Positions 6,752 to 11,673 of a stretch of 50,696 nt of DNA are shown piece after piece. The stretch spans positions 1 to 50,696 of the forward strand of contig CAZWEF010000004.1 of NCBI GenBank assembly GCA_964632125.1. Reading direction: 5' to 3'. The stretch comes from an uncultured Erysipelotrichales bacterium. Its GTDB lineage: Bacteria; Bacillota_I; Bacilli_A; Erysipelotrichales; CAZWEF01. The notes under the pieces were generated by a model. It ran no database searches and was not told where the DNA came from. It saw only the letters and a list, made by a program, of their open reading frames with translations. A program made the position numbers and the translations under genes. How positions within the stretch are numbered: position 1 is the stretch's first letter; the number at the start of each line of letters is the position of its first letter.

Positions 6752-6827
6752 GCTTGAATAGCTCAGTTGGTAGAGCAATCGGCTGTTAACCGATCGGTCG
6801 TAGGTTCGAGTCCTACTTCAAGCGCCA
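6752..6827 (+). tRNA. tRNA-Asn(GTT)
   Basis: Acceptor GCTTGAA/TTCAAGC, anticodon arm ATCGG-CT-GTT-AA-CCGAT, TTCGA loop, CCA. Confidence 0.97.
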
Positions 6828-6829
6828 TT

Positions 6830-6906
6830 GGCTCGTTGGTGAAGTGGCTTAACACAGCGCCCTTTCACGGCGTCATTCACGGGTTCGAATCCCGTACGAG
6901 TCACCA
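6830..6906 (+). tRNA. tRNA-Glu(TTC)
   Basis: Acceptor GGCTCGT/ACGAGTC, anticodon arm GCGCC-CT-TTC-AC-GGCGT, TTCGAAT, CCA. Confidence 0.97.
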
Positions 6907-6910
6907 TTTA

Positions 6911-6937
6911 AAAGACACATCGAAAGATGTTTTTTTT
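6911..6937 (+). terminator. Terminator after the tRNA pair
   Basis: ACATC-GAAA-GATGT plus T run. Confidence 0.75.
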
Positions 6938-6938
6938 A

Positions 6939-6967
6939 TTGCTTTTTTAAGAATGAAGTGCTATTAT
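6939..6967 (+). promoter_or_regulatory. sigmaA promoter of the riboswitch/antiporter operon
   Basis: TTGCTT-17 bp-TATTAT with TG extended -10. Confidence 0.7.
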
Positions 6968-6972
6968 TTCTA

Positions 6973-7026
6973 TAGGAAATGATGTCTTCCTTGTACAACT
7001 AAACCGCGATAGCTGATGACGTCTAC
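6973..7026 (+). ncRNA. Fluoride riboswitch (crcB motif)
   Basis: P1 AGGAA/TTCCT enclosing ATGATGTC; AAACCGC-GATA-GCTGATGAC; pseudoknot GATGTC/GACGTC; 3' CTAC. Confidence 0.9.
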
Positions 7027-7051
7027 TTTTTTAAGTAGGTCATCTTTTTTT
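7015..7051 (+). terminator. Riboswitch expression-platform terminator
   Basis: GATGAC-(GT)-CTACTT / AAGTAG-GTCATC followed by T7; the 5' arm is the aptamer's 3' pseudoknot strand. Confidence 0.85.
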
Positions 7052-7059
7052 ATGGAGGT

Positions 7060-8238
7060 ATGATGATGATATATGATTTGGGAAAGGTATTGGTATTAGG
7101 TGTTGTGGTTGGTTGGTTATTTTCTAAGGTTAAGCTACCAAGTTTACTTGGTATGTTAATTGTTGGTATGATGATTGGACCTTATGGATTTGGGCTTCTA
7201 AATGGTGCTTTATTGGATATTTCAGCAGAGTTAAGACAAGTTGCACTCATTGTCATTTTGACGCGTGCTGGTCTAGGGATGGATGTTCAAAAAATCAAAA
7301 AACTTGGTTTAGCAGCCTTACTTATGTGCTTTTTGCCAGCAGTTTTTGAAATTGTTGCGGTTACTATTTTATCTAGTTTATTGTTTCATTTCTCAATTAT
7401 AGATGGTATGATTTTAGGGAGTATTCTAAGTGCAGTATCGCCAGCTATTATTGTTCCTAGGATGCTTCATCTAAAGGAGCAACCAAATATTAATCAAGAC
7501 ATTGTTCAACTTGTTTTAACAGGTGCATCGCTCGATGATGTGTTTGTACTAGTCGTGTTTAGTAGTCTAGTTTCAATTCGGCTGACAGGTCAGTTTGATG
7601 TCAGTCAGCTAAGTGTTGTACCAATTTCAATCATGACTGGTATCGTCATTGGTGCTCTTTTTGGGAAACTACTTTCAATTGTGTCAAAAGTAGGTGCATT
7701 GAAGGTTCAAACGATGATTGTTTTACTATTTGGTATGAGTTTGTTCTTGTTAGGTGTTGAAAAACAATTGCCATTTGCATTTTCAGCCATGGTTGCCATC
7801 ATTGTACAAAGTTTAGTCCTTGTGATGCAATCACCTCATTTACAAAGCCCACTTGACAAGGCCTATCAAACGTTTTGGCAAGGTGCAGAAGTATGGTTGT
7901 TTGTACTGGTAGGTTGTTTACTCGATTTTCGTCTCATTTTAACTTATGGACTTCTAGCGGCAGCGCTTGTTTTGGGTGCACTCTTGATTCGTATGGTTGG
8001 TGTTTTTGTTAGCTTAATGCCAACTTCTTTTACGCCAAAACATAAGATTTATACCATGATGTCTTATATACCAAAAGCAACTGTTCAGGCCGCAATTGGA
8101 GCCATTCCACTATCATTAGGCTTTCAAACAGGTCAATTGATGTTGGTCTTATCTGTTTTAGCTATTTTGATTTCAGCACCATTAGGGGCATGGATAATGG
8201 ATCATTTTTCTTATTTAGCTATTAATAAGGAGGTATAG
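7060..8238 (+). CDS. Cation:proton antiporter, NHA/SLC9B-like
   Basis: Highly hydrophobic; ILTRAGL, AVSPAIIVP, GASLDD di-Asp, FVLVG, PKATVQAAIG motifs. Confidence 0.88.
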   Translation: MMMIYDLGKVLVLGVVVGWLFSKVKLPSLLGMLIVGMMIGPYGFGLLNGALLDISAELRQVALIVILTRAGLGMDVQKIKKLGLAALLMCFLPAVFEIVAVTILSSLLFHFSIIDGMILGSILSAVSPAIIVPRMLHLKEQPNINQDIVQLVLTGASLDDVFVLVVFSSLVSIRLTGQFDVSQLSVVPISIMTGIVIGALFGKLLSIVSKVGALKVQTMIVLLFGMSLFLLGVEKQLPFAFSAMVAIIVQSLVLVMQSPHLQSPLDKAYQTFWQGAEVWLFVLVGCLLDFRLILTYGLLAAALVLGALLIRMVGVFVSLMPTSFTPKHKIYTMMSYIPKATVQAAIGAIPLSLGFQTGQLMLVLSVLAILISAPLGAWIMDHFSYLAINKEV

Positions 8239-8239
8239 T

Positions 8240-9958
8240 ATGTTTTCATTGTTGAGGTTTGCAAAAGAGTATCGGTTTCAAATGATTGTTGGGCCTTTTT
8301 TTAAGTTTCTAGAAGCTGTCTTAGAGTTGTTTATACCTATTATGATGGCACAATTAATTGATCAAGGTATTCATCAAAACAACATGGATTTTGTTTTAAG
8401 GAAAGGTGTCGTTATTTTGGTTATATCCCTAGTTGGGTTGGTTTCGGTTTTTATTTGTCAGTATTTAGCCTCTATTGCTTCGCAAGGCTTTGGTACGAAC
8501 CTTAGAAACGAACTTGTTAAACACATGCATCACTTATCATTAACTGACCTTGACCATTTAAAAGAAGGAAAAATGTTGTCACTGGTAACCAGTGATGTCA
8601 ACCAAATGCAATTGATGTTGGCCATGTTAATTCGCTTGGTTGTGAGAGCACCTTTCTTAAGTTTAGGGGCATTGATTATGGCATTTTATATCAACTCACA
8701 AATGGCTATGATTTTTGTGATGGTATTACCTATTTTTGGGTTAATGCTCTGGTTAACAATTAAACTAACACGACCTATGTTCAAAAAAGTTCAAAGACAA
8801 CTCGATCAATACATTGGTCTTATTACTGAAACATTGGGTGGTGTGCGTGTTATCCGTGCGTTTGGTAAAAGTCAACATCAAAAAGAACGTGTGATGGAAG
8901 CAAGCGATGATTTAGCACGTTTATCTATTCGCGCGAACCGATTAGCGAGTTTAATCAACCCTCTTACAACACTCACTTTAAATATTGGTATCATGCTTAT
9001 TTTACAATTATCAGGGCAACAAGTGATGATTGGACATATGACTCAAGGAGATGTGCTTGCACTCATCAATTACATGTCACAAATGCTTTTGGCATTGATT
9101 ATTGTTTCTCAACTCGTTGTCATCTTTACACGGGCATCTGCTTCTGCTTCAAGGATTGAAGAGGTCTTGTCGATGAAACCATCGATGATTGATCAAAAAA
9201 CAGCACACCCACTCTCAGCTATTGTTCAATTAGAAGCAAATGAACTATCATTTCGCTATGGTCGTAGTAAAGACATACTTAAACAAATTAATCTAACGAT
9301 AAAACAAGGTGAAGTACTGGGGATTACGGGACCAACAGGAAGCGGGAAAAGTACACTCGGTTATGTGCTTGGAAGATTGTATGATGCTGATAGTGGTCAT
9401 GTTTGTATCAATCACATTAATATTCAACAATATGCGATTCAAGACTTAAGAAGAAAAATTGCCTATGTACCTCAAGATACCATTTTATTTACTGGCACAA
9501 TCGCAAGTAACCTTCGCATAGGCAAGCCGGATGCGACCATTGAGGAAATGGAAAAAGCACTCGAAATAGCACAATGCCTTTCATTTGTTCGATCACTTTC
9601 AAGAGGACTTGAGGCACCAGTTGTAGAAGGAGGTAAAAACTTCTCAGGAGGACAAAAACAGCGTGTTGCAATTGCTCGTGCACTTGTTGGTCAACCACAA
9701 TTATTAATTTTAGATGATGCTTTAAGTGCTTTGGATTATCAAACGGATAAGTTATTAAGGACGGCATTAAAAACGGAGTTGAAAGAGACGATGGTTGTGG
9801 TTATCTCACAACGCATTAGCAGTATTGTTGACGCTGATCAAATCTTGGTTTTACAAGAAGGGGAAACAGTTCAAATGGGAACCCATCAAGAACTCATGAG
9901 AACGTGTTCACTTTATAAAGATATGGTGATGCTTCAAACAAAGGCGGTGAACGCATGA
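8240..9958 (+). CDS. Heterodimeric ABC exporter, subunit 1 (TMD-NBD, degenerate Walker B)
   Basis: GPTGSGKS, FSGGQKQR, LILDD in place of DE. Confidence 0.92.
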   Translation: MFSLLRFAKEYRFQMIVGPFFKFLEAVLELFIPIMMAQLIDQGIHQNNMDFVLRKGVVILVISLVGLVSVFICQYLASIASQGFGTNLRNELVKHMHHLSLTDLDHLKEGKMLSLVTSDVNQMQLMLAMLIRLVVRAPFLSLGALIMAFYINSQMAMIFVMVLPIFGLMLWLTIKLTRPMFKKVQRQLDQYIGLITETLGGVRVIRAFGKSQHQKERVMEASDDLARLSIRANRLASLINPLTTLTLNIGIMLILQLSGQQVMIGHMTQGDVLALINYMSQMLLALIIVSQLVVIFTRASASASRIEEVLSMKPSMIDQKTAHPLSAIVQLEANELSFRYGRSKDILKQINLTIKQGEVLGITGPTGSGKSTLGYVLGRLYDADSGHVCINHINIQQYAIQDLRRKIAYVPQDTILFTGTIASNLRIGKPDATIEEMEKALEIAQCLSFVRSLSRGLEAPVVEGGKNFSGGQKQRVAIARALVGQPQLLILDDALSALDYQTDKLLRTALKTELKETMVVVISQRISSIVDADQILVLQEGETVQMGTHQELMRTCSLYKDMVMLQTKAVNA

Positions 9959-11673
9959 AACAATTTATGTCGCTTTTTAAAACACATAAACGATACGTCA
10001 TGTTCATTATTGTTGTTGGATTAATGATTGGTGTTACCTCCGTTTTATTAACATTCCTTATTGGCCGTGGGATTGATATGATGATTGGGAAAGGCATGGT
10101 GGACTTTAAACAACTTGGCGTATACGTTATGTATATGATGCTTGTCCTCGCAGTGAATGTTGTGATGCAATGGTGTTTGATCCATATGACAAATGGTTTA
10201 TCCTTTAAACTTGTGCATGAACTCAGAACAAAGGCCATAGAGCAACTCTCTTTATCCGGTATTGCATTTTATGATCAACATGCACATGGTGATCTTGTTA
10301 GTCGTTTTACGACAGATTTAGAAAGTTTGGCTGACGCGTTGGTTGCTCTTTTCTCAAGCTTATTTCCAGGTATTTCAATTATTATCATCAGTTTGGTATT
10401 TATGATACAGTCAAGTATTTGGTTAATGTGGGTTATTGTGTTAACCACACCGCTCATTTTTATTGCAGCATTCGTGGTCGCAAAGTTATCTCAAAAAAAC
10501 TTTAGACAACAACAAACTCATAATGGCCGTTTAACAGGCTATATCCATGAGATGTTTCATGGCTATCGTATTGTCAACATGTTTGGTTACGAACAAAGTG
10601 TTATCGATACCTATGAAGCATTGAACCTTGATCTTAAATATTGGGGACAAAAAGCGCAGTTCACATCCTCAATCACTAACCCCTTAACACGCTTTGTTAG
10701 TCACTTAACTTATTTATTGATTGGTGTTGTCGGTGGCTATTTAATGATTGTTTTAAAAGACCCAACAATGACTGTTGGCGTAATTACAAGCTTTTTGCTT
10801 TACTCAAGTCAGTTTTCAAAACCTTTTGTTGAATTGTCAGGTATCGCAACACAAATTCAATCAGGTGTGGTTGGTTATCAACGTATTCAAAGTGTTATTC
10901 ATGAACCAATCTTTGAGCATGCTGATGGTAAAACCTTAACCAATATTAAAGGAGAAGTTGCTTTTTCTCATGTTTCGTTTGGATATGATCAATCAAAACG
11001 CATTTTAAATGATTTGAGTTTACACGTAATGCCAGGTCAAACAGTGGCCATTGTTGGTGAAACAGGATCGGGAAAAACGACAATGGTTAATTTGTTGATG
11101 CGGTTCTATGATTTAGATGAAGGGATGATTTACATTGATGGAGAGCCCTTTACACACTATACAAAAAACAGTGTTAGACAAGCCTTTGGTATGGTGCTTC
11201 AAGATACTTGGCTGATGTCAGGGACAATTAAGGAAAACATTGCATATGGTCGCCCAGATGCAACAATGGAAGAGATTATTCGTGTCTCAAAAGAAGCCTA
11301 TATTCACCATTTCATTGAGCGTTTACCGGATGGATATGATACATTGATTGGTGGTCACGGCATCCATTTGTCATCTGGACAAAAACAACTCATGACCATT
11401 GCAAGAACCATGCTTTCAAATCCAACCATGCTTATTTTAGATGAAGCGACAAGTTATGTGGATCCCTTAACAGAACGTCATATTCAAAGTGCCTTTTTAA
11501 AATTAATGAAAAATAAAACCAGTTTTGTTATTGCGCATCGACTCAGTACCATTCAAGATGCTGACTTGATTCTTGTGATGAAACATGGTCAAATGATTGA
11601 AGTTGGTCAACATCAAGAATTGCTTGATTTAAAAGGTTATTACTATGATTTGTATCAAGCACAGTTTTCATGA
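9955..11673 (+). CDS. Heterodimeric ABC exporter, subunit 2 (TMD-NBD)
   Basis: GETGSGKT, LSSGQKQL, ILDEATS, IAHRLST; ATGA overlap with subunit 1. Confidence 0.92.
   Translation: MKQFMSLFKTHKRYVMFIIVVGLMIGVTSVLLTFLIGRGIDMMIGKGMVDFKQLGVYVMYMMLVLAVNVVMQWCLIHMTNGLSFKLVHELRTKAIEQLSLSGIAFYDQHAHGDLVSRFTTDLESLADALVALFSSLFPGISIIIISLVFMIQSSIWLMWVIVLTTPLIFIAAFVVAKLSQKNFRQQQTHNGRLTGYIHEMFHGYRIVNMFGYEQSVIDTYEALNLDLKYWGQKAQFTSSITNPLTRFVSHLTYLLIGVVGGYLMIVLKDPTMTVGVITSFLLYSSQFSKPFVELSGIATQIQSGVVGYQRIQSVIHEPIFEHADGKTLTNIKGEVAFSHVSFGYDQSKRILNDLSLHVMPGQTVAIVGETGSGKTTMVNLLMRFYDLDEGMIYIDGEPFTHYTKNSVRQAFGMVLQDTWLMSGTIKENIAYGRPDATMEEIIRVSKEAYIHHFIERLPDGYDTLIGGHGIHLSSGQKQLMTIARTMLSNPTMLILDEATSYVDPLTERHIQSAFLKLMKNKTSFVIAHRLSTIQDADLILVMKHGQMIEVGQHQELLDLKGYYYDLYQAQFS

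Follow-up and report, generated by a model that had tools for sequence, protein, structure and literature searches.

The 50,696-nucleotide stretch of DNA that we analysed as a whole (the window; contig CAZWEF010000004.1 of assembly GCA_964632125.1, from an uncultured Erysipelotrichales bacterium) carries a fluoride riboswitch of the crcB motif directly upstream of a gene for a cation/proton antiporter, in a genome where our searches returned neither of the established fluoride exporters, Fluc (CrcB) and CLC-F (EriC). We believe, with a probability of roughly 60%, that this RNA is a fluoride ON switch driving a cation/H+ exchanger of the NHA2 type, and that the exchanger protects the cell by acting on its pH gradient and not by moving fluoride. 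The pairing of such a riboswitch with an antiporter is itself already known, and the locus in the window adds another member. What may be new is the comparative result, namely that the fluoride riboswitches of this order are near-exclusive to the antiporter, that the antiporter alternates strictly with Fluc, and that genomes carrying it frequently have no known fluoride exporter.

The proposed regulatory step is well supported by the anatomy of the leader and by its conservation. The leader and the gene that follows it are composed of these elements:

6939-6967, forward strand: putative promoter, read by eye, with -35 TTGCTT (6939-6944), a 17-nucleotide spacer and an extended -10 TGcTATTAT (6959-6967)
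6966-7032, forward strand: fluoride riboswitch aptamer (crcB motif), Rfam RF01734, 46.9 bits where the gathering score is 34
6975-6978 with 6987-6990, forward strand: aptamer helix P1, GGAA paired with UUCC, from the RF01734 match
6981-6986 with 7018-7023, forward strand: aptamer pseudoknot, GAUGUC with GACGUC, six of six pairs, one of them U-G
7006-7013, forward strand: second aptamer helix of 2 base pairs (G7006-C7013 and C7007-G7012) with a GAUA loop; the consensus has 4 base pairs
7015-7051, forward strand: predicted intrinsic terminator serving as expression platform, from RNA folding, with its stem at 7015-7044 and a U7 tail at 7045-7051
7054-7058, forward strand: Shine-Dalgarno sequence GGAGG, read from the sequence
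7060-8238, forward strand: NHA2/SLC9B-like cation:proton antiporter, longest open reading frame, 392 residues

The match to RF01734 (E-value 5.7e-10) covers the full model, positions 1-64, with all conserved aptamer positions present, and it is the sole match that a search of the whole 2.07-Mb source genome returned. The pseudoknot is left unscored by the Rfam model, and its pairing was read from the sequence. Compared with the GAAGU/ACUUC pairing common among orthologous leaders, one pair of the window pseudoknot is altered on both strands, from A-U to U-G. Second helices as short as that of the window are also present in two of the orthologous leaders (L015 and L028). Most antiporter-linked aptamers (L002-L050) have, in addition, a variable hairpin between P1 and AACCGC, for example UUAGUG...CACUAA. 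At 6991-7003 the window holds only a vestige of that hairpin, the 8-nucleotide palindrome UUGUACAA, in a region that the Rfam model counts as an insertion.

The terminator stem, GAUGAC(GU)CUACUU / AAGUAGGUCAUC, comprises 12 base pairs, six from GAUGAC/GUCAUC and six from CUACUU/AAGUAG, with a 2-nucleotide bulge at 7021-7022, a UUUU loop and an energy of -11.3 kcal/mol in our in-house test for a hairpin followed by a U run. Because the 3' strand of the pseudoknot (7018-7023) sits within the 5' arm of this stem, the aptamer and terminator folds should be mutually exclusive. This is the architecture of a transcriptional ON switch of classical design, from which a response of this RNA to fluoride is predicted. 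The putative promoter is the least certain element of the leader. Its -35 matches the consensus at only three of six positions, which is why the consensus promoter scan did not list the site at 6939-6967, and its -10 is of the extended type; the transcript is predicted to start near G6975, the first base of P1. The sequencing runs found to contain the locus are DNA runs from gut metagenomes, with no RNA-seq run among them.

Three successive in-frame ATG codons follow the Shine-Dalgarno sequence at spacings of 1, 4 and 7 nucleotides (7060, 7063 and 7066). The true start is probably the second or the third of these, both of which are favoured by their spacing, and the match to the family profile begins at 7066. 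The open reading frame matches PF00999 (Na_H_Exchanger) with 118.5 bits against a cut-off of 26.2. No curated NCBIfam name applies, since all matches to NCBIfam are sub-threshold, and by domain search and by the CLC signatures GNNLI/GMGLI, GREGT/V and GEVTP the protein belongs to neither the CrcB nor the CLC family.

Both sequence and predicted fold place the antiporter closest to the mammalian exchanger NHA2. Its best relatives by sequence in the PDB are human and bison NHA2/SLC9B2 (7b4l and 7p1i; E-values 3e-28 and 9e-26), with MjNhaP1 far weaker at 2e-8. An AlphaFold2 model made from 26 family members (pLDDT 83.7, pTM 0.79) is closest to NHA2 in a Foldseek search (TM-score 0.85-0.86, E-value ~1e-15), and among the matches listed all 50 structural neighbours are cation/H+ exchangers. 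The motifs GASLDD and PKATVQAAIG lie at residues 155-160 and 338-347. A HMMER alignment to bison NHA2 sets E97 on E214, V126 on V243, D159/D160 on D277/D278, R311 on R431, Y336 on W456, K339 on K459 and T341 on T461. All of these positions except V126 are invariant across the 26-member family alignment, and E97, D159, D160, R311, K339 and T341 correspond to the signature residues of NHA2, every one of which is kept. In NHA2 itself, D277 and D278 bind the ion, the salt bridge between E214 and R431 is specific to NHA2 members, K459 and T461 stand where other exchangers have an arginine and an acidic residue, mutation of these residues impairs function, and exchange is electroneutral despite the DD motif (PMC8850199). 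Because the NHA2 cation site is fully conserved, we take electroneutral exchange of Na+ (or Li+, possibly K+) for H+ as the default, and it is the most likely activity of the antiporter.

NHA2 and the window protein thus have in common the DD motif, the salt-bridged Glu and Arg, the helix-break Lys and Thr, the AVSPAxxVP stretch and PKATVQAAIG. However, the window protein is only about 26% identical, is bacterial and stands behind a fluoride riboswitch. The long N-terminus and the domain-swapped helix TM-1 (the fourteenth helix) are missing from it, because the alignment reaches back to NHA2 residue 125-140 and leaves just 14-22 query residues ahead. Furthermore, at a position shortly past the unwound AVSPAxxVP stretch, an arginine that is invariant in the family (R134 in the window protein) takes the place of the serine of NHA2. 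Judged by its sequence, the protein is best described as a core-only relative of NHA2 and not as an NHA2 orthologue in architecture.

The original prediction for this locus had anticipated most of this anatomy. The complete crcB-motif aptamer, which scores above the RF01734 threshold, the 3' pseudoknot strand that doubles as the 5' arm of a 12-base-pair terminator with a U7 tail, the resulting ON-switch layout, the Shine-Dalgarno sequence ahead of the antiporter, the GASLDD and PKATVQAAIG motifs, and the likeness to the NHA/SLC9B clade are all borne out. The promoter is present where it had been proposed, although its weak -35 leaves that call less secure. The case made from the intact DD motif for cation/H+ exchange gains strength from conservation of the NHA2-specific Glu-Arg pair, Lys and Thr, and the statement that Na+/H+ antiporter genes are among those associated with this riboswitch is documented (PMC11139923).

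Relatives of the antiporter number in the thousands at 40-46% identity, mostly in Lachnospiraceae and other gut Bacillota. We obtained 80 orthologous loci, in named genomes, by an alignment-based profile scan (a single-protein query recovered none) and surveyed the first 50 of them for riboswitches. RF01734 matches directly upstream of the antiporter on the same strand in 39 of these 50 loci, 40-133 nucleotides before the antiporter match, and these leaders represent 39 of the 42 riboswitch matches in the same genomes. With the window included, 36 of 40 leaders have a hairpin followed by a U run that starts inside the conserved GCUGAUGAC strand of the aptamer. No downstream partner is conserved in the 50 loci, where the largest cluster of downstream open reading frames has two members. 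The conserved module is riboswitch plus antiporter, and nothing else.

A similar picture emerges within the order. In a fixed set of 301 Erysipelotrichales genomes (the order sample), with the antiporter called by the family profile at an E-value of 1e-40 or below, 151 genomes and 56 of 101 genera carry the antiporter. This sample includes the Holdemanella MAG of locus L004, with identical contig coordinates. Among the 134 riboswitch matches found in 131 genomes of the sample, 119 immediately precede the antiporter, at a median distance of 46 nucleotides. About 80% of orthologues carry a riboswitch, and no match was found at 29 of the 151 order orthologues and at 11 of the 50 diverse ones. One genome without an antiporter orthologue, CrcB or CLC has a strong fluoride riboswitch all the same (G274:C38:4377-4449, 51.3 bits).

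The source genome (2.07 Mb in 195 contigs, 98.9% complete) yielded no CRCB domain (PF02537) and no Voltage_CLC domain (PF00654) in a six-frame search that found the former in 11 and the latter in 12 of 14 control genomes. Given this lack of both Fluc and CLC, the antiporter appears to be the only fluoride-induced transporter of the cell.

Comparison across genomes reveals that the antiporter and Fluc exclude each other. CrcB is present above cut-off in 38 of the 301 order genomes, and these divide into 0 of the 151 antiporter genomes and 38 of the 150 antiporter-less genomes (p = 2e-13 by a Fisher test, which ignores phylogeny). At the level of genera, both occur in only three (g2, g7 and g36) where about 11 would be expected (p 8e-5), and within these three genera they are always found in different species. 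The CrcB species of genus g2 also have fluoride riboswitches, one of which (G299) precedes crcB by 2 kb in the same orientation. In a separate sample of 300 Clostridia genomes, CrcB is found in none of the 43 antiporter genomes and in 49 of the 257 others (p = 5e-4), and it is likewise found in none of the 50 diverse antiporter carriers. Thus, across the three samples, not one of about 240 carrier genomes has the antiporter and CrcB together.

The possibility that the antiporter excludes all known exporters had to be rejected for CLC proteins. A CLC of any kind is present in 69 of 151 carriers versus 79 of 150 non-carriers in the order sample, a difference that is not significant. When the short CLCs are sorted by the signatures given above (PMC11139923), bona fide CLC-F can be assigned to at least 17 of the 151 carriers, or 21 when the 4 with GEVVP are counted, and to at least 10 of the 150 non-carriers, or 12 when the 2 with GEVVP are counted. 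One genome (G242:C5:51645-54206, L124) has the riboswitch, the antiporter and a CLC-F gene (GTNLI/GREGV/GEVTP) in order on one strand, which among the matches listed is the only case in the order sample of the antiporter and a fluoride exporter under one leader. In four antiporter-less genomes (G068, G124, G144 and G296) the riboswitch precedes CLC-F instead. Neither CrcB nor any CLC was found in 82 of the 151 carriers.

Two further observations concern the CLC proteins themselves. A genome that has the riboswitch and antiporter (G004) contains a second riboswitch (L113, G004:C1:1500-3300) before a CLC-F gene with GEVTP that a TAG stop and a change of frame interrupt. The exporter may be in decay while the antiporter stays intact, or the assembly may be wrong. 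Additionally, the short CLCs include a sizeable third group, marked by the motifs G-T-N-(L/T/M)-(V/I), GREGA and GGEI(V/I)P. Its members fit neither the canonical CLCs (GSGIP/GREGP) nor the published N-T or M-V subclades of CLC-F, they retain the CLC-F-type Glu of GEVTP, and none was seen beside a fluoride riboswitch in our samples. They were found in these loci:

First set: L088, L090-L092, L094, L095, L098-L100, L102, L103, L105, L108-L112, L114
Order sample: L118-L122, L125, L126, L129, L130, L139, L141, L144, L149, L163, L166-L168, and others

These results extend what is known of fluoride riboswitches and their cargo. Fluc or CLC-F is present in more than 85% of representative bacteria, usually to the exclusion of one another, with both in about 3% of strains (PMC11139923). 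Na+/H+ antiporters are the next-most-common cargo of fluoride riboswitches after the exporters (PMC11139923, summarising Baker et al. 2012), and Stockbridge and Wackett interpret them as a means of pH homeostasis against acidification driven by hydrogen fluoride (HF) (PMC11139923). The locus in the window has the same pairing of riboswitch and cation/proton antiporter, but there no fluoride exporter accompanies the antiporter, the genome having neither Fluc nor CLC. In Clostridioides difficile the riboswitch heads an apparent two-gene operon, CD0656-CD0657, for a CLC-type protein and an NhaP-type antiporter (PMC11477304). There, unlike in the window, a CLC-type gene is co-transcribed, and the comparison with CD0657 rests on its description as NhaP-type. 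Full-text literature searches, in which Baker 2012 and Stockbridge 2012 were represented by the papers that cite them, returned no study that tested the function of a riboswitch-linked antiporter, nor any statement that such an antiporter and Fluc exclude each other.

Among known systems, the leader itself comes closest to fluoride ON switches of the terminator type, for example the crcB leader of Bacillus cereus, with which it shares the aptamer consensus and a pseudoknot that joins the P1 loop to the 3' tail. In published accounts of the mechanism (10.1101/2023.12.05.570056, PMC8752731), the 3' strand is likewise shared with the terminator and the ligand blocks termination. The window differs from the crcB leader in its antiporter cargo, in its second helix of two pairs with a GAUA loop and in the vestigial state of the extra hairpin. 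Fluc, CLC-F and the antiporter all occupy the same slot behind fluoride riboswitches in Erysipelotrichales, and the exclusion between antiporter and Fluc resembles that reported between Fluc and CLC-F. However, the antiporter is unrelated to either exporter in fold and family, and it coexists with CLC-F.

In the mechanism that we favour, the aptamer 3' strand at 7018-7023 would be taken into the terminator stem when fluoride is absent, and transcription would end at the U7 tail. Cytoplasmic fluoride, with Mg2+, would lock the pseudoknot between 6981-6986 and 7018-7023 and block the terminator, and RNA polymerase would then enter the antiporter gene and, in the source genome, probably also two ATP-binding cassette (ABC) genes described below. 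The product, a 13-helix exchanger of the NhaA fold, would trade H+ against Na+ (or Li+, perhaps K+) without net movement of charge. In a cell without a fluoride exit, the entry of HF should halt at equilibrium, with the ratio of internal to external fluoride set by the pH gradient. The most coherent direction of exchange would be H+ in and cation out, which would trim the pH gradient and lower the accumulation of fluoride, while a proton pump could restore the lost driving force as membrane potential. Extrusion of H+ would raise fluoride accumulation in an exit-less cell, and would be more sensible beside CLC-F, with one H+ in per F- out. Here we infer the transported ions, the direction of exchange and the physiological benefit. 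Fluc passes more than 1e5 ions per second versus hundreds for CLC-F (PMC11139923, Table 1). A reconciling view would be that lineages with the fast Fluc need no helper, whereas lineages in which export is slow (CLC-F) or absent depend on the antiporter. It most likely serves as a defence of Fluc-less Bacillota.

Several observations weigh against this account. The second helix of the window aptamer is unusually short. Trimming of the pH gradient alone leaves unexplained that the antiporter, never found together with Fluc, does accompany bona fide CLC-F in at least 17-21 of 151 carriers and shares the G242 operon with it. The genus-level count corrects only partly for the neglect of phylogeny in the Fisher tests. 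Furthermore, 66 of the 150 antiporter-less order genomes also have neither CrcB nor any CLC, which tempers the notion that the exporter-less state of many carriers is exceptional in the order.

It may be asked whether the antiporter is instead a third class of fluoride exporter that replaces Fluc and moves F-, HF or a Na+/F- pair on a cation/proton antiporter (CPA)/NhaA-fold scaffold. This would be the simplest account of both the Fluc exclusion and the carriers that have no exporter. It would suit an antiporter that is the sole riboswitch cargo of a genome without Fluc or CLC, the 82 order carriers in the same state, the species of g2, g7 and g36 that have either CrcB or the antiporter and not both, and a strict exclusion of CrcB comparable to that of Fluc and CLC-F. 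Even the family-invariant R134, in place of the Ser of NHA2, could be read in its favour. However, the entire NHA2 cation site and signature set are invariant, and the structural neighbours listed, all of them cation/H+ exchangers, include no anion-transporting member. We know of no fluoride-binding signature for the antiporter. It also coexists with CLC-F as often as non-carriers have CLC-F, in one case within a single operon, which argues against its being a redundant fluoride exporter, and the C. difficile operon, within the limits of that comparison, points the same way. We consider direct export of fluoride by the antiporter to be possible, but unlikely.

The gut lumen is rich in Na+, and such a setting could drive an antiporter that extrudes H+ for Na+ influx and so counters the acidification that HF brings about. 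This restoration of pH is the standard reading and that of the review (PMC11139923). It would fit the co-transcription with CLC-F in G242 and the C. difficile operon, because CLC-F imports one H+ per F- expelled, and an electroneutral exchanger of the NHA2 type would be reversible with the Na+ and H+ gradients (PMC8850199). Unfortunately, it accounts poorly for genomes that have no fluoride exit, such as the source genome and more than half of the order carriers, where the entry of HF would stop at equilibrium and impose no sustained acid load. By the weak-acid principle (PMC11139923), a higher internal pH would even increase the accumulation of fluoride. In addition, this reading leaves the absence of the antiporter from Fluc genomes unexplained, given that the same proton cycling would occur there. 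It is a serious candidate that we nevertheless judge improbable for this locus. The original prediction had offered a pH-restoring exchanger as one of its two interpretations, beside a third class of fluoride exporter; of the former, the cation/H+ exchange stands as the likeliest activity, whereas extrusion of H+ fits poorly with the exit-less genomes. Its observation is confirmed and its interpretation partly supported.

It might also be argued that the leader holds a crcB-motif variant that is degenerate or does not sense fluoride, and that the antiporter is a housekeeping Na+/H+ exchanger unrelated to fluoride. The two-pair second helix, the weak promoter consensus and the order and diverse orthologues with no riboswitch match would be consistent with such a case. 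However, the aptamer scores 13 bits above the curated cut-off with every conserved position in place, its pseudoknot is kept through a two-sided change, the overlap of aptamer and terminator is kept in nearly all leaders surveyed, and a riboswitch precedes most orthologues. We give this explanation very little credence. A fluoride-induced NHA2-type exchanger that acts on the pH gradient is the reading that we prefer.

The other features near the locus have no evident part in the conserved module:

6752-6827: tRNA-Asn gene, upstream of the leader
6830-6906: tRNA-Glu gene, upstream of the leader
8240-9958, forward strand: first ABC half-transporter gene, ABC_membrane and ABC_tran domains
9955-11673, forward strand: second ABC half-transporter gene, ABC_membrane and ABC_tran domains

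A small hairpin with a T run at about 6917-6937 closes the tRNA pair. The two ABC genes overlap at an ATGA and encode half-transporters of 572 residues each, as in a heterodimeric exporter pair. Because the first begins 1 nucleotide past the antiporter stop and a consensus scan returned no promoter-like site near 8100-8240, the pair is probably co-transcribed with the antiporter and, in the source genome only, induced by fluoride through readthrough. We considered whether the ABC pair is part of a conserved fluoride module, and rejected this. An ABC homologue is near the antiporter in 3 of the 80 orthologous loci, downstream on the same strand in only one, and no downstream gene recurs in more than two loci. 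The adjacency looks like a local accident of gene order.

The role of Na+/H+ antiporters under fluoride has so far been assumed to be pH homeostasis. The locus in the window and its relatives make a clean system in which to address this role: a single gene follows the switch, the genome frequently has no further candidate for fluoride transport, and the antiporter alternates with Fluc even among congeneric species. Should the antiporter by itself give fluoride tolerance, through either mechanism, many gut Bacillota that have been deemed defenceless would have a defence. In that case a third entry would join Fluc and CLC-F as the proteins on which bacteria are held to rely, with a bearing on how fluoride affects the microbiota of gut and mouth and on the engineering of fluoride-tolerant hosts for use in organofluorine chemistry.

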